The position numbers and the translations under genes are program-made. DNA of 32,000 nucleotides. Origin: Bellilinea caldifistulae (GTDB lineage: Bacteria; Chloroflexota; Anaerolineae; Anaerolineales; Anaerolineaceae). Under the pieces are notes generated by a model. The model was not told where the DNA came from, searched no databases, and saw only the letters and a list, made by a program, of their open reading frames with translations. Below, in pieces: positions 2,709-21,346 of the stretch. Positions within the stretch are counted from its first letter, which is position 1. Every line of letters begins with the position of its first letter. The stretch covers positions 120,001-152,000 of the forward strand of contig NZ_LGHJ01000017.1 of assembly GCF_001306055.1 (NCBI RefSeq), given 5' to 3'.

Positions 2709-3785
2709 CTATGGATCTCTCATCACCTCCTTGGGAATCAAATCGGGCTGGTCCGCCTTTCGGCTGGAAGCACGAACGACCAGCTGCGGTTGCATCAGGA
2801 TCGTTTCAAATTCTTGTGCGGTTTCCTTGGCTTCCAACAAGTTCAATAAAAGCGCAATTAGACGTTCACCAATCTCCCAAACCGGCTGACGAACAGAAGT
2901 CAGCGGCGGGGTCAGGTACTGGGCAATCGGCGTGTCATCGAAACCGGTAATGCCAATTTGACTGCCCACCTGAAAACCGCCATCCTGAACGGCTTTAATC
3001 GCCCCTACGGCCATGTAATCGTTCAGGCAGACCATCGCCGTTGGGCGAATTTCCGCCGGCAGAGCCAGCAGTCTTCGAGCGGCCTCGTATCCAAAAGCGT
3101 AACGGCCTTCCCCGCGCTGAATCCATTCCGCCATCGTCTCAATGCCGGCCACACGCATGGCGGAAAAATAGCCTTCCATGCGGTTATTGCCCACCCGTGA
3201 TTCCTCTGGCCATGCCAGTGCTGCAATCCGGCGGTGACCCTGAGCCAGAAGATGCTCGGTTGCCAACCGCAGCCCATAACCGCCGTCCACATCAATTGAA
3301 GGGAAATGCAAATCGGGATTGGAACGCCCAAAGGCAACAAAAGGGAATTTTTGTTCAAGCAGGAACAGCACCCGCGGATCGTTGTATTCGACCCCCGAAA
3401 GCACAAAACCATCCACCCGGCGGGTTTCCATCAATTCACGATAGGATTCGATTTGCCGCTGGGTATCGGAATGGTAGGGGAAGCACAACAGATAATAGCC
3501 GCGCTGCTCAGCGGCATGGAACATGCTCTGCAAGAAAGTATCCAGAATCGGGTTAGCCTGATCAGGGGGAGAAGGCCGCCAAGAGTAACCAATCGTAAAA
3601 CTGCGCTGGGCGCGCAGACTGCGGGCGGTGTAATTGGGGCGGTAATTCAATTCCCGTACAGCCTGCCAGATGCGCGCTTCGGTATCCGGCGCAACCTGCA
3701 CCTGACCGTTGATCACCTTCGAGACGGTCTGGTAACTGACACCGGAGCGTACAGCAACTTCCTTAAGGGTAACTCTGCGGGACAT
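2709..3785 (-). CDS. LacI family transcriptional regulator
   Basis: The N-terminal HTH (VTLKEVAVRSGVSYQTVSKVINGQ ... ARSLR) is the LacI/PurR signature. The C-terminal portion is a periplasmic-binding-protein-like sugar-binding fold. The gene is adjacent to a sugar ABC operon. Confidence 0.93.
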   Translation of the reverse strand: MSRRVTLKEVAVRSGVSYQTVSKVINGQVQVAPDTEARIWQAVRELNYRPNYTARSLRAQRSFTIGYSWRPSPPDQANPILDTFLQSMFHAAEQRGYYLLCFPYHSDTQRQIESYRELMETRRVDGFVLSGVEYNDPRVLFLLEQKFPFVAFGRSNPDLHFPSIDVDGGYGLRLATEHLLAQGHRRIAALAWPEESRVGNNRMEGYFSAMRVAGIETMAEWIQRGEGRYAFGYEAARRLLALPAEIRPTAMVCLNDYMAVGAIKAVQDGGFQVGSQIGITGFDDTPIAQYLTPPLTSVRQPVWEIGERLIALLLNLLEAKETAQEFETILMQPQLVVRASSRKADQPDLIPKEVMRDP

Positions 3786-3822: not shown

Positions 3823-3848
3823 TGCGAACGTTCGTGCGAACGTTCGCA
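3823..3848. promoter_or_regulatory. tandem LacI-type operator: TGCGAACGTTCG followed by the perfect 14-bp palindrome TGCGAACGTTCGCA
   Basis: 3835-3848 is a perfect palindrome with the central CG and AA/TT arms typical of LacI/CcpA-family operators. The 12-nt unit TGCGAACGTTCG is duplicated head-to-tail at 3823-3834. It lies immediately downstream of the lacI -10 box, about 40 nt upstream of the lacI ATG. Confidence 0.75.
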
Positions 3849-3853
3849 TTATT

Positions 3854-3882
3854 AGTATAGAAAATTTAATCGGCGTTGTCAA
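3854..3882 (-). promoter_or_regulatory. sigma-70-type promoter of the lacI gene (TTGACA - 17 nt - TATACT on the minus strand)
   Basis: Minus-strand TTGACA is plus 3877-3882 and TATACT is plus 3854-3859, with a 17-nt spacer. The operator begins 5 nt downstream of the -10 box. Confidence 0.7.
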
Positions 3883-3989: not shown

Positions 3990-5405
3990 ATGCTGCAAGA
4001 AACCAAACAACGCAATCAATTGCTTTTTCTTCTCTTTTTCGGTGTGTTGATGGGTGCACTGGATATTGCCATCCTTGGCCCGGCTCTCCCCTCCATCCGC
4101 GCCGAATTCCGCGTGGATGAACGCAATCTGGCCTGGATGTTTAGCAGTTATGTCCTTTTCCAACTGGTCAGCACGCCACTCATGGCAAAACTATCCGACC
4201 TTTACGGCCGCCGCTGGATTTACATCCTGGATATCGCTCTGTTCGGGATGGGGTCACTCCTGGTAGCCACTTCAACCAGTTTCACCGGTGTACTGATCGG
4301 ACGTGCCATTCAGGGGTTTGGAGCCGGCGGTATTTTTCCGGTTGCCAGCGCTGTGATCGGCGACACCTTCCCGCCCGAAAAACGCGGCAGCGCCCTCGGC
4401 ATGATTGGGGCGGTTTTCGGCGTGGCGTTTTTGATCGGCCCGCTGCTGGGAGGTGTCATTCTGGCAATTGCCAACTGGCACTGGCTGTTCCTGATCAATC
4501 TGCCCATCGCCGGTTTGATCATTCTATTCAGCCTGCGTCTGCTGCCCGCCACCCGCCCGGCTACCAGCCGCCGGTTGGATGTGGCTGGCATGATTTTGTT
4601 AGCCCTGTTCCTCGCTGCGCTGACCTTTGGACTGAATCAACTCGACCCCAGCAATTTACCGGACAGTCTGCTCACCCCATCCGTGGGTGGCGTGCTTGCG
4701 CTGGCGTTGGTTTTACTGGTCATTCTCATTCAAGTCGAGCGGCGAATCAGGTTGCCGATGCTGCCCGCTCACTTGTTTAACCGGCGCCAGCTGGGGCTTG
4801 CCTATCTGCTTTCCGCCGGAGCCGGGCTGGCAGAAGCCAGTCTGGTCTTTGTTCCACTGATGGCAGTAACCGGTCTGGCAAATCAGGGCATCAACGAGAA
4901 AAACGCCACATGGCTCCTGATTCCGGCCATTCTCGCCATGGCAATCGGTTCACCCCTCGCCGGACGGCTGCTCGACCGGGTTGGTTCCCGGAATGTGATC
5001 ATGGGCGGTACGGCATTGATGAGCGCCGGTTTTCTCATGCTCAGTCTGCTGGGTGGTCATTTGATTTTCTTTCTGCTTTCGGGAGTATTGATTGGCGGCG
5101 GCTTGACCGCCTTGCTTGGGGCGCCGATCCGGTATATTATGTTAGGTGAAGCCTCAGCCGAGGAGCGTTCGTTGGCGCAAGGGCTGGTTACCCTCTTCAC
5201 CAGCATTGGTCAGTTGATCGGTAGCGCGTTGATCGGCGCACTGGTTGCCTCTTTTGGAACAGCCAACCCCTTCAGAGGGTATCAGACCGCCTTTGCATTG
5301 ATCACCTTCACCAGCCTGATCTTGTTTGTCAGTGCAACCATGCTGAAAACCCGTCAGCGAGAATTGGAGACCCTGGGAGGAAATGAAGCCTTCAGCCGTG
5401 GATAA
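3990..5405 (+). CDS. MFS transporter, DHA2 (EmrB/QacA-like, 14-TMS) drug:H+ antiporter family
   Basis: 471 aa, about 14 hydrophobic segments. MFS motif A-like LSDLYGRRWIY and motif C-like GAGGIFPVASAVIGD. Followed by an overlapping TetR gene. Confidence 0.88.
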   Translation: MLQETKQRNQLLFLLFFGVLMGALDIAILGPALPSIRAEFRVDERNLAWMFSSYVLFQLVSTPLMAKLSDLYGRRWIYILDIALFGMGSLLVATSTSFTGVLIGRAIQGFGAGGIFPVASAVIGDTFPPEKRGSALGMIGAVFGVAFLIGPLLGGVILAIANWHWLFLINLPIAGLIILFSLRLLPATRPATSRRLDVAGMILLALFLAALTFGLNQLDPSNLPDSLLTPSVGGVLALALVLLVILIQVERRIRLPMLPAHLFNRRQLGLAYLLSAGAGLAEASLVFVPLMAVTGLANQGINEKNATWLLIPAILAMAIGSPLAGRLLDRVGSRNVIMGGTALMSAGFLMLSLLGGHLIFFLLSGVLIGGGLTALLGAPIRYIMLGEASAEERSLAQGLVTLFTSIGQLIGSALIGALVASFGTANPFRGYQTAFALITFTSLILFVSATMLKTRQRELETLGGNEAFSRG

Positions 5406-13591: not shown

Positions 13592-14494
13592 GTGGGGTTT
13601 CCCAGCGTGACTGAGTTACTGAATGAACTCACCTTCATTTTCCAGCGCTTCAACTGGTTGAGCGCCCTGGACCTGTTTCTGGTCACGCTGGTTTTTTTTG
13701 GGGTGTTGTTACTGGTACGGGACACGCAGGCAATGGTACTGCTGCGCGGTGTTTTACTGCTGGTGGTTGCCCTGAGTCTGTTGACCAGTCTGGTTAGCCT
13801 GCCGGCCTTTTCATGGCTGATCCAAACTATTGCCCCAACGCTGGTACTGGCTATACCGGTCATTTTCGCTCCCGAAATCCGGCGCGGTTTGGAAAGGCTG
13901 GGACGGGCGGGTTCGCCAGCGGCTATCTTCTGGCAGCAAAGCGAAAAAGACGTTTCCACAATGCGCGAGACGATTCAGGCGGTTGTCAGCGCCTGTGCCC
14001 GGCTTTCTGCACGCCAGCATGGCGCATTGATCATCTTACAGCGCGGCGACAGTTTGCAGGAATACATCCGCACTGGCGTACGTCTGAACGCCAAGGTAAC
14101 CCCGGAATTGCTTCTACAAATCTTTTATCCAAACACCCCGCTGCATGATGGGGCTGCAATCATCGTCCGCGATCAGGTTGCAGCAGCCGCCTGCGTCATG
14201 CCGCTTTCTGCCAGCGGCATTCTCAATCGTTCACCGGAAAGGCAAATGGGGTTACGCCACCGGGCTGCCCTGGGCACGTCTGAAGCTACGGATGCGATTG
14301 CAGTGGTGGTCTCGGAAGAAACCGGCTCAATTTCGATTGCCCATGGTGGTCGGATGATTCGCCGGTTGGACAGCGAACGGCTGGAAAACATTTTGATGGC
14401 TTTTTATCAGCCACCTCCCAAAACGAGCAGCCTGAGTGATTGGTTCAGGAGAAACCGAAAACCACCGGCTTTCCGTGAGGATATTGAGCGATGA
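13592..14494 (+). CDS. cdaA: diadenylate cyclase CdaA (membrane-anchored DAC domain)
   Basis: Three N-terminal TM helices, then a DAC domain with the DGA (TPLHDGAAII) and RHR (GLRHRAALG) motifs and SEETGSISIA. GTG start (13592; alternative GTG at 13607). Confidence 0.92.
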   Translation: MGFPSVTELLNELTFIFQRFNWLSALDLFLVTLVFFGVLLLVRDTQAMVLLRGVLLLVVALSLLTSLVSLPAFSWLIQTIAPTLVLAIPVIFAPEIRRGLERLGRAGSPAAIFWQQSEKDVSTMRETIQAVVSACARLSARQHGALIILQRGDSLQEYIRTGVRLNAKVTPELLLQIFYPNTPLHDGAAIIVRDQVAAAACVMPLSASGILNRSPERQMGLRHRAALGTSEATDAIAVVVSEETGSISIAHGGRMIRRLDSERLENILMAFYQPPPKTSSLSDWFRRNRKPPAFREDIER

Positions 14495-15753
14495 TTGAGG
14501 TTTTACGCCGACTGCTTCGTCTTTTACCCTCCCTGATTACGGCGTTCGTTTTAGCGCTGGCAGTTTGGATTTCGGCAGTCAGTTCGAGCGACCCGCTGGT
14601 TGAACGCACCTACCCCAATCCTTTGCCCATCGAAATTATCGGGCAGGATCCGGGGCTGGTTATCACCTCACCAGTTCCAGGCTCGGTAACCGTGGTCCTC
14701 AGCGCACCCCAGTCCATCTGGAATCAACTGACCACCGAAACAGGATCAGTGCGTGCCTTCCTCGACCTTTCTGGTCTGGAAGCCGGCAGCCATACCGTGC
14801 CGGTTAAGATTCAAATCGCCGCCCGGCCGGTTCGCAAGATTGCCCAATCTCCTCAGACGATTACCATCACACTGGAACGCCTGGCCAGTAAAGAATTTCC
14901 GATCCGAGTGGTGACCCGCGGCAGCCCGGCGGTTGGTTACACTGCTGATACCCCCACCCTCAGCCAGACCTCCGTGACGGTCAGCGGACCGGAATCGCAG
15001 GTCAATCGCGTTGCGGAAGTTCAGGCTATTTTGGATATCAGTCAGGCTACCGAAACCATCAGCCGGACGGTCAATCTGGTTGCGGTGGATGCCAATGACA
15101 ATCCGATCAACGGCTTAAGTTTATTGCCCGACCGGGTAACCGTTCGGCAGAATATCTCCCAGCGCTTTGGCTACCGCAATGTGGTCGTCAAGGTTGTCGT
15201 ACTGGGTCAGGTTGCCAGCGGCTATCGCCTCACGAATATTTCGGTGTTTCCGCCGGCGGTTACGGTCTTTTCGGCTGATCCGCAAGTCGTCAGTGATTTA
15301 CCCGGTTTTATCGAAACCGAACCCCTCAACATCAACGGGTTGAAGGATGATCTGGATATTTCCCTGAGTCTCAATCTGCCTGCAGGTGTTTCTGTGGTTG
15401 GGGATCAAACCGAAGTACTGGTGCGGGTCGGTGTTGCGGCTATTGAAAGCAGTTTAACCCTGCCCAACATCCCGGTGGAAATCACCGGCTTACAGCCGGG
15501 ACTGAGCGCCGAAATCTCACCGGAAACGATCACGGTAATTATTTCCGGCCCGGTTGCCTTGCTTGACCGCTTGCGCGCCACAGATGTACGGGCTGTGGTT
15601 GATTTGAGCACGCTGTCCGAAGGCACCTACCAGATCGAACCGGAGGTCGAAATCCTGATCGCCGAGTTGAAGACCGAATCGCTCCTGCCGGAAAGCGTGG
15701 AAGTTATCATCACTCGGACAACCCGTTCAAGCAGTGGTACAATCACCCCTTGA
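14491..15753 (+). CDS. cdaR: CdaR (YbbR-domain) regulator of diadenylate cyclase
   Basis: ATGA overlap with cdaA. One N-terminal TM helix, then four repeated ~85-aa beta-rich YbbR-like modules (repeating V.V.....P.GV.V...P..V.V.V pattern). This is the canonical position downstream of cdaA. Confidence 0.85.
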   Translation: MIEVLRRLLRLLPSLITAFVLALAVWISAVSSSDPLVERTYPNPLPIEIIGQDPGLVITSPVPGSVTVVLSAPQSIWNQLTTETGSVRAFLDLSGLEAGSHTVPVKIQIAARPVRKIAQSPQTITITLERLASKEFPIRVVTRGSPAVGYTADTPTLSQTSVTVSGPESQVNRVAEVQAILDISQATETISRTVNLVAVDANDNPINGLSLLPDRVTVRQNISQRFGYRNVVVKVVVLGQVASGYRLTNISVFPPAVTVFSADPQVVSDLPGFIETEPLNINGLKDDLDISLSLNLPAGVSVVGDQTEVLVRVGVAAIESSLTLPNIPVEITGLQPGLSAEISPETITVIISGPVALLDRLRATDVRAVVDLSTLSEGTYQIEPEVEILIAELKTESLLPESVEVIITRTTRSSSGTITP

Positions 15754-17151: not shown

Positions 17152-17179
17152 TTGACGATCAAACGAGGTGTGGTAAAAT
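17152..17179 (+). promoter_or_regulatory. sigma-70-type promoter (TTGACG - 16 nt - TAAAAT) for the tRNA gene
   Basis: TTGACG at 17152-17157 and TAAAAT at 17174-17179. The tRNA 5' end is 11 nt downstream of the -10 box. Confidence 0.6.
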
Positions 17180-17190
17180 ACAAGACACGA

Positions 17191-17262
<72 letters not shown>

Positions 17263-17294
17263 CTAGAGTCAAACCCTTTACAGGGCGCAAGCAG

Positions 17295-17327
17295 CCAGAG
17301 TCCGTCGGGCTCTGGTTTCATTTTTCT
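17295..17327 (+). terminator. intrinsic terminator after the tRNA
   Basis: CCAGAGTC (17295-17302) pairs with GGCTCTGG (17308-17315; one G-U), loop CGTC... then TTTCATTTTTCTT. Confidence 0.65.
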
Positions 17328-17819: not shown

Positions 17820-18641
17820 ATGCCGCACATCCGCGTCAATAATCTGGACCATTATTATGAACAAACCGGGCAGGGTGCCGTACTGGTATTCGTGCACGGC
17901 GCATTTGCGGATGCTCGTATTTGGGAACCTCAATGGAAGCATTTCTCAACAAAATACCAGCTTTTGCGCTATGACCTGCGTGGTCATGGAAGGACGGGGG
18001 CTTCCGATTTGGCTCATTACTCTATGGCAACTTATGCAGATGACCTGTCTGCCCTGCTGGATGCGCTTGCCATCCGTTCACCCATCCTGTGTGGACTATC
18101 CTGGGGAGGGAGCATCGCCCAGACGTTTGCCGTGCGCAACCCAGAACGACCCAGGGCATTGATCCTGGCGGGTACAGCTGTTTCGATTGACTTAACTATG
18201 CTGGATAAGCTACTATGCTATGTACTGTTCCCCAGGTGGATGATGTCCCTGACCATCCGGATGATGAGCGTTGAGAATTTTACCCGTTTCTCTTTTCGGC
18301 TGGCTCGCCTTACCCGCGGCAAGCATTGGCTGAGCAGGGATGAAAACGCCCAGGCTTATCTGGAGCAATGTATGCTCCGCATGGAAAAAAGTGAATATCT
18401 GAAGATTTGGAATGCAATGTATGGTTTCCACACACTTCCATTGGAAAAAATTACCTGCCCCACTTTAATACTCAATGGGGAATTTGAACCCAAAAATACC
18501 TTCCGACACACGGAGGAAATTTTACGCCGGATTCCGCAAGCCAAAGCAAGGATTATCCCATGTGCAAGTCATGCCATGAATTTAGAGCAAGCGGAAACCT
18601 TTAACAATTTTGTGGATGCTTTTCTGGATGGCGCCGGCTGA
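17820..18641 (+). CDS. alpha/beta hydrolase fold protein
   Basis: Oxyanion-hole HG motif (VLVFVHGAFAD), nucleophile elbow GLSWGGSIA (G-x-S-x-G) and a C-terminal catalytic His region (PCASHAMNLEQ). The start is set at ATG 17820 (MPHIRVNNLDHYYEQ), which fits the family N-terminus better than the track's 17724. Confidence 0.85.
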   Translation: MPHIRVNNLDHYYEQTGQGAVLVFVHGAFADARIWEPQWKHFSTKYQLLRYDLRGHGRTGASDLAHYSMATYADDLSALLDALAIRSPILCGLSWGGSIAQTFAVRNPERPRALILAGTAVSIDLTMLDKLLCYVLFPRWMMSLTIRMMSVENFTRFSFRLARLTRGKHWLSRDENAQAYLEQCMLRMEKSEYLKIWNAMYGFHTLPLEKITCPTLILNGEFEPKNTFRHTEEILRRIPQAKARIIPCASHAMNLEQAETFNNFVDAFLDGAG

Positions 18642-18758
18642 ATTCCCTAAAGTGCAACACCGCCGCCAGAGCACCTCGTACTTCTCCCTAGCAGCAGGTA
18701 TCATCAATCCTCAAACCAAAATGCTTCTTAAGACTTTTTTATAATTTCGAGTCGTTTG

Positions 18759-18786
18759 TTGACTTAGTCAATATTCGGCGTATAAT
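18759..18786 (+). promoter_or_regulatory. near-consensus sigma-70 promoter (TTGACT - 16 nt - TATAAT)
   Basis: TTGACT at 18759-18764 and a perfect TATAAT at 18781-18786, in a 500-bp non-coding region. Best promoter match in the window. Confidence 0.7.
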
Positions 18787-18792
18787 TTATTT

Positions 18793-18951
18793 AATAACGT
18801 AATTAAGGATCAGGTCCTCATTACGCTGAACTTCGTCAGTTAGTTAATGTGGATGCGTTGATCCGATAACCTGCGCAGGTCGCAAGCCTTCACATTGAGG
18901 CGAGATTATCGGGGAGCGAAAGCGATACCGGCCACATTGGCCGGTTTTTTG
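18793..18951 (+). ncRNA. candidate structured non-coding RNA (~160 nt): cis-regulatory leader or stand-alone sRNA upstream of the polysaccharide cluster; class not identified
   Basis: It is bounded by the promoter above and the intrinsic terminator at 18927-18951. No ORF beyond 4 codons. It contains several helices (CGTAAT/ATTACG 18798-18803/18820-18825; AATGTGGA/TTCACATT 18846-18853/18889-18896; palindrome ACCTGCGCAGGT 18869-18880; CCGATAA/TTATCGG 18863-18869/18906-18912). The 5' end is inferred from the -10 position only. Confidence 0.55.
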
Positions 18952-19111
18952 TTGGAAGGTTGGCAATCAGGCTGGGAAACTGGTTCGAAAATTCTGCTCT
19001 TCTCTAAATAACTGAATTATTCATCACAAAGGGTAATCAATCTTTACCCCCACAACCTTAGTCTTATCGGCATTTGCTTCAAAGTCATTAACGTAAACAA
19101 CGATTTATCGG
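18863..19111. repeat. dispersed TTATCGG/CCGATAA heptamer array (4 exact copies)
   Basis: CCGATAA at 18863-18869. TTATCGG at 18906-18912, 19064-19070 and 19105-19111. A one-mismatch copy CCGATTA sits at 19135-19141. All lie in the non-coding stretch preceding the first polysaccharide gene. Confidence 0.55.
18927..18951 (+). terminator. intrinsic terminator (ACCGGCCA-cat-TGGCCGGT + TTTTTTG)
   Basis: Perfect 8-bp GC-rich stem (18927-18934/18938-18945) directly followed by a T6 run. Confidence 0.8.
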
Positions 19112-19147
19112 TAGAGGATGGTTTGATTTCTCTTCCGATTATTTTTA

Positions 19148-21346
19148 ATGTCGGAACGGCGGAGCATGCCAGTAAAAATAAAAGGGAAAGCAATGAATAT
19201 TCCTTCTGATCTAAGTATCCAGTGGTTCTTTCAAATCATCAAACGCCGCCTGTCACTGATTGCGAGTCTGGTGGCGGTGGCAATTGTTGTCCTCTTCATT
19301 GTCATGAAAATAGCCCCATCCACCTATCGCGCCTCCGTCACGCTTTTGATCCAACCATCCGATGATGAAAAAACCAGTGAAATCAATACGCTAATGGCAG
19401 GCGAAAGGTTAGCACTGACTTACAGCCAATTAATGACCAGCCGCCCAATCCTCGAAAAAGTCCTCAATCAGAATCAATTGGATCTTTCGGTCAAGGAATT
19501 GGAGAAAAGGATCTCCGTGCAACCCATTCGCGACACGCAATTAATTCGCCTTTCGGTGACCGATTCCTCCCCATCGCAGGCTCAATTACTGGCAAACTCT
19601 CTTGCAGCAACATTCGTTGAATATATTCAGTCTCTTTCTAATGAACAATTCACTGCTTCTTTATCCGAATCTCAGCAAAAAATCGAGGTGAAACGGAATG
19701 AAATAGCCCAAACTCAGCACGAAATAGGTGCTGAAAACCAAGCAAGCGTCGAATACGAAATTGAACTTCTTCGCCTGAACATGTTGATTTCAGAAAACAG
19801 AGCCGCCTATCAATCCATTCAGTCCTCACTCAAAGATTTACAGTTTTCGCTGGAACAAGTTTTGAATGAAGTTGATTTGGTTGAATCGGCTCAATTACTC
19901 GATTCGCTCAATACTCCGCCCTATACTGCTGTATTGACGGTATTATACGATGAGCAACTTTTTAGCGGTGGTGGGGGTTTTTCAAATCCCCAAAGTGGAA
20001 TCACCCGCATGGCTGATGGTTCCTTGCAACTCCGTCCCGCTATTCTGGAACAAGTCATTGCAAAACTTGACTTGAACGAGTCATCTCAATCCCTGCAATC
20101 CCGTATAACGCTGACCCCCCTAACCGAAACCCGCTTGATCCGGTTAAGAGTAAAGGATAATGACCCCCAACAGGCGGTTCAAATTTGCCAAACAATTGGA
20201 GATGTGTTGATTACACAGACCCGGAATTTTTTGAGCGAACCTTATCAAAAGCGTATTAACAGTATGGAAAATGAACTCAAGGGGTTGGACCAGCAATTGG
20301 AAACCTATCAAAGCGAATTGAGAGATTGGACAAAGAAGAAAACCCAAAGCGATCTTAACCTGAAAACGCTGGAAAGCGAACTTGCCACAAAGAATCTGGA
20401 ATTGCGTGATCTGTTGAATAACCACGATCAACTTGTTCTTGAGGCGACAAAAACTGCCAGCCTGATCTCGATCACCGAACCGGCGGCTTTACCGGATGAA
20501 CCAACCCAAAACTGGCTTCTTTACGGCGCTTTAGTAGTTTTGGTTACTTTCTTCATTGCTTTTGGGCTGGTTTTTTTCCTTGAAATTTCCAGTAATCCGG
20601 TCGTCACCCCTCAAAATGTTGCTGAGCTTTGTGACATTGAACCGGTGGGGATCATTGGTCACAATCGGCATGCGGAAGAAAAAATTGTGATTGGCTCAGA
20701 AAAATCCCCTGAAATTGCAGAGGACTTCAAGAAACTGGCTGCTGAAATTCAGATTGAAGCCCAACGGGTTCCCCTGCACACACTATTAATCACCAGTCCG
20801 GCGCCGCAGGACGGTAAAACCTTTGTTGCAGCCAATCTGGGTTTGGCCCTCTCCCGTGCAGGAATGGGAATTATTATCGTGGATGCCGATCTTCATCTTC
20901 CCCAACTTCACCGTGTATTCGGTATTGAAAAAGAGATTGGGTTGGCCGATGCCCTGAGTCATCCCAACCATTCCGAGTGGTTAAAAAGCATTCAAAATCA
21001 CAACTTGAAACTGATGACCAGCGGTGAGATCCCCGCCAATCCGGTTGAATTACTCAGTTCTCCCCGGTTGCAGGATATTTTGAAACGCATCTCCAAAGAA
21101 AGCAACCTGGTCTTAATTGATTGTCCCCCTTTGCTGGCACTGGCGGACGCTTCCTATCTCTCTGCTGCGGTTGATGGGGTTCTCCTTGTGTTGCGCAGTG
21201 AAAAAACCAATCAAGTAGAAGCGAAAAAAGCCCTTTCCATCCTCAAGAAAATGGATAAGAAATATATCGGGATTGTCCTGAATGATGCGGCAGGACATTT
21301 CAGCCATTATTACTGGCATTACCGGCAAGCCGCATTGGAAAAGTAA
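19148..21346 (+). CDS. polysaccharide co-polymerase (Wzz domain) fused to a BY-kinase (Wzc/EpsB/GumC-like tyrosine autokinase)
   Basis: N-terminal TM plus Wzz/chain-length-determinant region, a long coiled-coil and a second TM (WLLYGALVVLVTFFIAFGLVFFL). The kinase domain has Walker A ITSPAPQDGKTFVAANL, Walker A' IIIVDADLHLPQLH and Walker B LVLIDCPPLL, plus a C-terminal Tyr cluster HYYWHY. The start could instead be ATG 19166 or 19193 (MNIPSDLSIQWFF fits Wzz N-termini well). Confidence 0.88.
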   Translation: MSERRSMPVKIKGKAMNIPSDLSIQWFFQIIKRRLSLIASLVAVAIVVLFIVMKIAPSTYRASVTLLIQPSDDEKTSEINTLMAGERLALTYSQLMTSRPILEKVLNQNQLDLSVKELEKRISVQPIRDTQLIRLSVTDSSPSQAQLLANSLAATFVEYIQSLSNEQFTASLSESQQKIEVKRNEIAQTQHEIGAENQASVEYEIELLRLNMLISENRAAYQSIQSSLKDLQFSLEQVLNEVDLVESAQLLDSLNTPPYTAVLTVLYDEQLFSGGGGFSNPQSGITRMADGSLQLRPAILEQVIAKLDLNESSQSLQSRITLTPLTETRLIRLRVKDNDPQQAVQICQTIGDVLITQTRNFLSEPYQKRINSMENELKGLDQQLETYQSELRDWTKKKTQSDLNLKTLESELATKNLELRDLLNNHDQLVLEATKTASLISITEPAALPDEPTQNWLLYGALVVLVTFFIAFGLVFFLEISSNPVVTPQNVAELCDIEPVGIIGHNRHAEEKIVIGSEKSPEIAEDFKKLAAEIQIEAQRVPLHTLLITSPAPQDGKTFVAANLGLALSRAGMGIIIVDADLHLPQLHRVFGIEKEIGLADALSHPNHSEWLKSIQNHNLKLMTSGEIPANPVELLSSPRLQDILKRISKESNLVLIDCPPLLALADASYLSAAVDGVLLVLRSEKTNQVEAKKALSILKKMDKKYIGIVLNDAAGHFSHYYWHYRQAALEK

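Follow-up and report, generated by a model that had tools for sequence, protein, structure and literature searches.

An RNA element located upstream of an exopolysaccharide operon of Bellilinea caldifistulae is, judging from its sequence and predicted fold, an unannotated member of the c-di-GMP-II riboswitch clan, distinct from all three families catalogued in Rfam. In the window, that is, the whole stretch of 32,000 nucleotides analysed here, we think it likely that a promoter, this variant aptamer (18845-18937) and a terminator that overlaps it (18927-18950) form a single regulatory unit that controls the operon and acts as an ON switch (Table 1). The operon encodes a wzz/BY-kinase, a beta-helix protein, a flippase, PGA_cap, Wzy (Wzy_C), GT4 glycosyltransferases and a hexapeptide transferase. 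A preliminary description of this DNA had proposed a riboswitch-type leader ahead of the polysaccharide genes, with c-di-GMP among the candidate ligands, and both suggestions have gained ground: the aptamer is predicted to compete with the terminator and matches a riboswitch clan, and c-di-GMP, as the ligand of that clan, is a plausible candidate.

Table 1. Features of the predicted switch and of the operon start (positions in the window)
Feature	Position	Strand	Description
Sigma-70-type promoter	18759-18786	+	TTGACT (-35, 18759-64), 16-nt spacer, TATAAT (-10, 18781-86)
Variable 5' leader	18794-18844	+	Bipartite hairpin CGUAAU..AUUACG; outside the conserved element
P1 5' strand	18848-18852	+	UGUGG; pairs with 18932-18936 (Rfam alignment)
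Conserved core	18853-18861	+	A-UGC-GUUGA; fits clan consensus GGAgGCgaUGA; nearly invariant in 12-13 members; equivalent of A13 (3Q3Z) at 18853, P2 5' strand 18854-56, UGA half of k-turn-like junction 18859-61
P3 5' strand	18862-18869	+	UCCGAUAA; pairs with 18906-18913
A37 equivalent and pseudoknot loop strand	18877-18883	+	A at 18877, then GGUCGC (18878-83)
P3a extra hairpin	18886-18901	+	GCCUU-CACAUU-GAGGC in the P3 loop; none of the three Rfam models has it
P3 3' strand, GGA and P2 3' strand	18906-18918	+	UUAUCGGG (18906-13), GGA (18913-15), GCG (18916-18); GGAGC invariant
Predicted ligand-site junction	18919-18931	+	A-AA-GCGA-UA-CCG-G (Rfam consensus and 3Q3Z contact mapping); A61 equivalent 18919, pseudoknot 3' strand 18922-25 and 18928-29, bulged U69/A70 18926-27, C71 C72 G73 18928-30
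P1 3' strand	18932-18936	+	CCACA; within the terminator 5' arm and loop
Intrinsic terminator	18927-18950	+	Hairpin and U6; 5' arm shared in part with the 3' strands of the pseudoknot and P1
Second conserved leader element	19135-19168	+	Hairpin CCGAU..GUCGG (19135-39 with 19150-54), then GGCGGAGCAUG (19158-68)
wzz/BY-kinase, first regulated gene	19193-21346	+	Chain-length determinant and P-loop tyrosine kinase; Pfam Wzz, ParA, AAA_31

Assignment to the c-di-GMP-II clan

Using the Rfam gathering thresholds, a scan of the whole window returned a tRNA-Met (CAT; 17191-17263) and nothing else, and no c-di-GMP-II family passed. This tRNA gene stands alone, within 17152-17317, and has both a promoter-like site of its own, an extended-TG TTGACG-16-TAAAAT, and a terminator hairpin of 11 bp (17293-17317). 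A covariance search of the leader, as proposed in the preliminary description, did return a match, although one below the gathering score: ranked by E-value over 18640-19200 (561 nt), the sole significant match was of 18842-18942, on the plus strand, to the full-length model of RF03170 (c-di-GMP-II-GCG aptamer), with 31.7 bits and an E-value of 0.0011 against a gathering score of 47.9. In this alignment the P3 loop is longer by an 18-nt insertion.

The same clan was matched by the leaders of related loci (designated L002, L003 and so on), with 27.2-28.5 bits for L003 and L004, 28.5 bits for L117 and 32.6 bits for L024, for which the best match was RF03169 (gathering 40). More distant orthologous leaders outscore the window against the clan, at 39.6-44.8 bits. 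The best individual matches were of L180 to RF01786 (44.8 bits, E 3.6e-8) and of L130 to the same family (42.5 bits, E 3.8e-6), both against a gathering score of 53.5; the plus strand of L128 matched RF03169 (39.6 bits, gathering 40) and its minus strand RF01786 (37.2 bits, gathering 53.5). If clan CL00127 is defined by a significant hit, on the strand of the downstream gene, with one or more of its family models, these full-length, plus-strand matches place the element in the clan. No member reaches the gathering score of RF01786, RF03169 or RF03170, the closest being L128 with 39.6 against 40, and an insertion of 18-22 nt in the P3 loop, found in every member, probably contributes to these low scores.

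RF03169 and RF03170, the GAG and GCG variants, have been kept separate from RF01786 because altered specificity was suspected; to our knowledge their ligands are unknown, and in the literature on the c-di-GMP-II variant families we found neither a ligand assignment nor a description of a type bearing P3a. The element shares with them the pseudoknot sequence GGUCGC(C)/(G)GCGA and, in the window, a position 69 that deviates from the standard family, and the best matches come from them, RF03170 in the case of the window and RF03169 in that of L024 and L128. It differs from them in score (31.7 against 47.9 for the window, 32.6-39.6 against 40 for its relatives), in possessing P3a, and at the positions that define the variants, which carry C37/G69 with A or C at 70, whereas the window has A37/U69/A70 (A18877, U18926 and A18927).

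Relatives and conservation

Orthologs of wzz were retrieved by protein identity, blind to the RNA, and the element was found upstream of wzz in L002-L005 (61-76% protein identity), in L007 (37%) and in L128 and L130 (35%). The carriers are Anaerolineaceae-like metagenome contigs on which the element lies 5' of orthologous wzz/tyrosine-kinase genes. L024, L100 and L117 were added by a metagenome pattern scan, in which 7 of the 120 matches listed were genuine, four of these seven duplicating loci already in the set, and the rest were mostly chance matches in GC-rich coding DNA; L180 was added by a scan of viral contigs together with our own covariance model. In the genome collection, a single relative of the Wzz protein was found (74% identity), in an Anaerolineaceae MAG, truncated and without upstream DNA. 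The sample therefore amounts to 13 sequences from about four lineages, and because of this shallow sampling covariation events are few. The comparison of homologous wzz/BY-kinase leaders advocated in the preliminary description showed the element to be conserved and P1, P3 and P3a to covary.

The aptamer was not found in the wzz orthologs L131, L132, L133 and L238 and is therefore not universal for the wzz operon. L131, which has no class II-type aptamer, gives a weak partial match at 445-499 to RF03168 (a c-di-GMP-I variant; 26 bits against 65.9), where a GGACGCAAAGCC motif is present and a second hairpin is truncated and followed by CCACA repeats. Two further P3a-bearing aptamers, both with U37/A69, lie elsewhere. 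One, on the minus strand of L128 (318-422), is divergent from the wzz copy and precedes a truncated 79-aa ORF with no Pfam match; the other, on the minus strand of L180 (152-255), is not located before wzz, in a contig of viral class in IMG/VR in which the downstream gene is cut by the contig end. In the window there is one copy, which scores 98 bits with our covariance model R1.

Identity of the aptamer to four orthologous loci is 87-94%; that of the 5' leader to the same four is 36-86% and that of the downstream spacer 41-70%, and for the first 600 nt of wzz the mean column identity over five loci is about 73%. Conservation of the aptamer beyond that of the coding DNA, together with compensatory changes in the helices and an invariant single-stranded core, argues for purifying selection on both the fold and the binding site. 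The same observations bear on the reading in which the RNA is a protein-dependent attenuator, or a degenerating riboswitch relic without ligand binding, and its likeness to Rfam families reflects ancestry without function. That all scores stay under the gathering thresholds and that the L007 clade is altered at G38/G39 and in P2 would fit a relic, but neither the conservation in excess of the adjoining coding DNA, nor the changes that preserve helices, nor the invariance of unpaired core nucleotides would be expected of one, and we judge this reading highly improbable.

Aptamer architecture and covariation

The structure tested consisted of P1, P2, P3, P3a and the pseudoknot. A5, an alignment of 12 members made with MAFFT and without fitting to any structure, had 86.2% of its cells paired, against 31-45% in slid controls; 11 pairs had changed on both sides (2-6 in the controls). 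Its covariation score of 0.258, against at most 0.086 in the controls, was attained by none of 500 shuffles. In A7, a model-fitted alignment of 13 members that leans towards the structure, 16 of the 23 pairs showed two-sided change, compared with 2-4 for slid partners; overall, 85-86% of the cells were paired against 30-45% in slid controls.

The nested P1, P2 and P3 of the clan are all present. P3 is the best supported, with 90-91% of its cells paired and two-sided change in 5-7 of 9 pairs (for example C-G to U-A, or A-U to C-G or G-C), so that CCGAUAA/UUAUCGG of the window becomes AUCGAUCA/UGAUUGAU in L007, CGAAGAUC/GAUCUUCG in L128 and CUGAAUGC/GCAUUCAG in L180. In P1, three of the five pairs changed on both sides, UGUGG/CCACA being replaced by ACUGG/CCGGU (L128) and UCUGG/CCGGA (L130); the helix can be extended to 10 bp in the window (18843-52 with 18932-41). 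P2 offers two invariant pairs and is hence uninformative on covariation. P3a, an insertion of 18-22 nt in every Rfam alignment that prints the loop, covaries in five of six pairs, from GCCUU/GAGGC to GCUUGA/UCAAGC (L128) and CCGUU/AACGG (L180). For the pseudoknot, GGUCGC with GCGA[UA]CC, 96% of the cells are pairable (12 members) and the only variation in the set is C-G to U.G; its 3' strand shows no covariation there, partly because the pattern of the metagenome search fixed that strand. Relative to the RF01786 consensus GGGCAC/GUGC[AA]CC there are two compensatory changes. These comparisons show an architecture predicted to consist of P1, P2, a k-turn-like UGA/GGA junction and P3, with a pseudoknot from the P3 loop to the 3' junction and the additional P3a.

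The predicted order P1, P2, UGA/GGA junction, P3 and loop-to-3'-junction pseudoknot is that of RF01786 (PDB 3Q3Z, from Clostridium acetobutylicum), and so is the conserved core GGA-GC-UGA ... GGAGC-A ... A-CCG. By contrast, the members described here reach 27-45 bits where the gathering score is 53.5, carry P3a inserted after the pseudoknot strand, use GGUCGC/GCGA instead of GGGCAC/GUGC in the pseudoknot, have A/U instead of U/A at 37/69, possess in most cases a P1 of only 3-5 bp that is embedded in the terminator, and come from Anaerolineaceae-like hosts rather than Firmicutes.

All the helices listed in the preliminary description can be drawn, but of the inner ones only CCGATAA/TTATCGG belongs to the conserved fold. 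It is a real helix, P3, with strong covariation, and the predicted pseudoknot is not the one suggested for it but lies between GGUCGC and GCGA..CC. Pairing in the long-range helix AAUGUGGA/UUCACAUU reaches 62-73%, and only the closest clade maintains it, and the bipartite 5' hairpin is lineage-specific, being missing in L007 and L117. What had been taken for a GNRA loop (GC-GAAA-GC) consists of the P2 3' strand and the pseudoknot 3' strand, and the hairpin drawn from a 12-nt palindrome overlaps a pseudoknot strand and shows mainly wobble changes, with a single two-sided change in one pair.

Promoter and terminator

The promoter matches the consensus at 11 of 12 positions (TTGACT-16-TATAAT), as the preliminary description had noted, but it is not alone in being the best of the window, for sites at 3882 (-) and 12372 (+) also reach 11/12. 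Promoter-like matches as a class show no excess over shuffled sequence, and the stability of the plus-strand fold gains modestly on shuffles (z -2.2); taken together with the tied promoter score, this makes the sequence by itself suggestive but short of decisive. The promoter gains support from relatives, since the -35/-10 pair is kept upstream of the element in the lineages for which upstream DNA is available: TATAAT is unchanged across five close loci, and TTGAC(N)-17±1-TATAAT lies 5' of the aptamer in L003, L005, L024, L117 and L180. Transcription would start near 18793, and the 5' leader that follows varies between 15 and 57 nt among members. The match at 3882-3854 (-) adjoins a near-perfect tandem/palindromic repeat, TGCGAACGTTCG-TGCGAACGTTCGCA (3823-3848), located between a LacI-family gene (2709-3785, -) and a divergent MFS transporter gene (3990-5405), which looks like a LacI-type operator.

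About 140 nt 3' of the promoter, the terminator reads ACCGGCCA-CAT-TGGCCGGT followed by T6 in the DNA and ACCGGCCA-CAU-UGGCCGGU followed by U6 in the RNA, which gives a leader of about 160 nt. It had been described as a perfect 8-bp GC stem; the terminator is there, but the stem has six G-C and two A-U pairs. A hairpin and a U-run are present in 13 of 13 members, with a variable hairpin loop. Two other candidates were set aside. An RNA from the minus strand has the better fold z-score, yet the U.G pairs, the Rfam matches, the promoter and the U-run all belong to the plus strand. The small ORF ATG TGG ATG CGT TGA is present at 18848-18862, as had been pointed out, but it is not conserved as a leader peptide, the L007 clade having no ATG there.

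Proposed switch mechanism

Positions 18927-18936 are common to the pseudoknot 3' strand (ACC), to P1 (CCACA) and to the 5' arm and loop of the terminator. The terminator forms in the minimum-energy fold of 12 of the 12 leaders folded, and a fold in which the aptamer is enforced is 10-21 kcal/mol weaker, as computed without ligand or pseudoknot energy; by default, therefore, transcription would end near 18950. In these foldings the 3' strands of the aptamer and the default-forming terminator are mutually exclusive, and since the P1 and pseudoknot 3' strands lie inside the terminator 5' arm while unliganded folds hold the terminator, we infer an ON switch. In the absence of ligand, the terminator would form and an RNA of about 157 nt would be released; when ligand is bound, P1 and the pseudoknot would hold ACC...CCACA and block the terminator, and the polymerase would then read through into wzz.

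Exopolysaccharide production is a classic output of c-di-GMP, and the link is usually positive. In C. difficile, genes controlled by class II riboswitches are up-regulated by c-di-GMP (PMC6200980), and the logic proposed here, in which downstream transcripts would rise with c-di-GMP, is the same, so that the predicted ON polarity agrees both with these switches and with the usual c-di-GMP/exopolysaccharide link. As in other transcriptional ON riboswitches, such as the class II switch of C. difficile pilA1, the 3' part of the aptamer would serve as the 5' arm of the terminator and bound ligand would antiterminate; the present element differs in that both the pseudoknot 3' strand and P1 lie in the terminator arm, and in having an additional conserved ops-like element before the first gene.

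The preliminary description had also considered a stand-alone sRNA, in which the transcript of about 157 nt that runs from promoter to terminator acts in trans and its position is incidental. Only the terminator speaks for it, in that a complete promoter followed by a strong terminator would yield a discrete short RNA by default. However, the RNA always lies on the same strand as wzz and directly upstream of it across lineages, no further plus-strand promoter-like site was seen between the terminator and wzz, and a conserved aptamer fold with its 3' end built into a terminator is the hallmark of a cis-acting switch. We therefore consider a stand-alone sRNA very unlikely, and keep to the cis-acting ON switch, although the short RNA may have a dual role, in cis and in trans.

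Predicted ligand site

Ligand contacts were mapped onto the window by means of the Rfam consensus lines and of a sequence that we take to be that of 3Q3Z and that agrees with 13 of the 13 contact identities listed. The contacts in this structure are A13, A14, U37, G39, U60, A61, C68, A69, A70, C71, C72, G73 and A74 (PMC7288161). The window keeps A13 (18853), G39 (18879), A61 (18919), A70 (18927) and C71-G73 (18928-30), and so does not carry the full contact set of RF01786. C68 is replaced by A and compensated by its pseudoknot partner (G40 to U); U37 is replaced by A (18877) and A69 by U (18926), in covariation; at A14, U60 and A74 the nucleotide is changed or varies, and these positions vary in the consensus as well. 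Changes at G38/G39, accompanied by others in P2, occur in the L007 clade.

At positions 37/69, nine members have A/U (the window, L002-5, L024, L007, L117 and L100) and four have U/A (both L128 copies, L130 and L180); the consensus is U/A in RF01786 and C/G in both RF03169 and RF03170. The identity for the standard family rests on Rfam consensus lines and not on individual sequences, because a scan of viral contigs for bona fide RF01786 cores (GAGNNAGTNGTGCAACCG) gave coding chance matches only. Three Watson-Crick states at one pair of positions suggest that nucleotides 37 and 69 would pair with each other. A minor-groove triple between the ligand and an A-U pair has been reported (PMC7583470); this pair could be A14-U60 rather than 37/69.

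The ligand that we favour is c-di-GMP, but with modest confidence, because the window has U/A in place of the standard A69/U37 pair. The ORFs of the window that were scanned include no identified GGDEF or EAL gene. At 13592-15753, a diadenylate cyclase gene (CdaA-like, with a DAC domain) precedes one for a YbbR-domain protein, and der/engA, a tRNA and a hydrolase gene lie between them and the switch; from the presence of this cyclase gene we infer that the organism makes c-di-AMP.

The swap raises the question of whether the same fold and the same ON mechanism, with the A37-U69 exchange and with or without P3a, could be retuned to another nucleotide-derived signal, such as c-di-AMP, 3'3'-cGAMP or a linear dinucleotide. 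In 3Q3Z, 37 and 69 both belong to the contacts (PMC7288161), the nine members with A/U differ there from standard class II and from the four other P3a-bearing members, and Rfam holds two variant families, which differ at the same positions (C/G), apart from RF01786; moreover, the diadenylate cyclase gene lies 4-5 kb upstream. On the other hand, the change from A-U to U-A retains a Watson-Crick pair and adds no amino group in the minor groove, so that recognition may stay the same, and all other mapped contacts are kept. Aptamers of the U/A and of the A/U type occupy the same place before orthologous wzz operons, which suggests one and the same signal, and the cdaA genes are housekeeping neighbours, with der, the tRNA and the hydrolase gene between them and the switch. 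We thus regard altered specificity as unlikely, and hold it equally doubtful that the A37-U69 aptamers with P3a constitute a distinct riboswitch class with a pocket retuned to a signal other than c-di-GMP. By our reading of the GAG/GCG naming, these A37-U69 aptamers could be called the UAG type.

A second conserved, ops-like element

The longest ORF of wzz begins at 19148, and the protein in the database at 19166, but the true start is probably the ATG at 19193, because conservation ends with GGCGGAGCATG and the alignable part of the orthologs begins with ATGAAY. The 810-aa ORF called in L128 likewise extends back, through both riboswitch and terminator. At 25-60 nt before the wzz start lies the second leader element, a hairpin followed by GGCGGAGC(A/G)(U)UG. 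The hairpin covaries, with UCGACAU/AUGUCGA in L005, CGACAAU/AUUGUCG in L007 and CGGCAAUC/GAUUGUCG in L130. The element is present in 15 wzz loci and in L238; the carriers include the window, L002-L007, L024, L117, L128-L132 and L238, of which L131, L132 and L238 have no riboswitch. Its function is probably separate from that of the switch.

The wzz loci examined conserve either GGCGGAGCATG or GGCGGAGCGTTG, one deletion away from GGCGGTAGCGTG, the ops12 of RfaH. The hallmarks of an RfaH-type ops/JUMPStart element are GGCGGTAGNNTG, placed in a leader ahead of a long polysaccharide operon, and a cognate NusG paralog; no NusG paralog turned up in the ORFs scanned in the window. Going by this resemblance, the second element may be a recruitment site for such a paralog.

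Implications for Anaerolineae and for the clan

Anaerolineae are abundant, filamentous, floc- and granule-forming inhabitants of digesters and sediments, and are poorly tractable. The analysis assigns a concrete, testable regulator to an exopolysaccharide operon of this group. For the clan, it indicates that a whole sub-family of class II-type aptamers escapes the standard Rfam thresholds, probably in part through the inserted hairpin, and it brings to three the Watson-Crick states of 37/69 (U-A, C-G and A-U), a natural series that asks how this pair shapes ligand recognition and that could help to find what the GAG and GCG variants bind. Should the ligand be plain c-di-GMP, the result would be a useful annotation and not a surprise; if the A37-U69 aptamers were indeed a distinct class, Anaerolineae would have a separate second-messenger input into exopolysaccharide synthesis.
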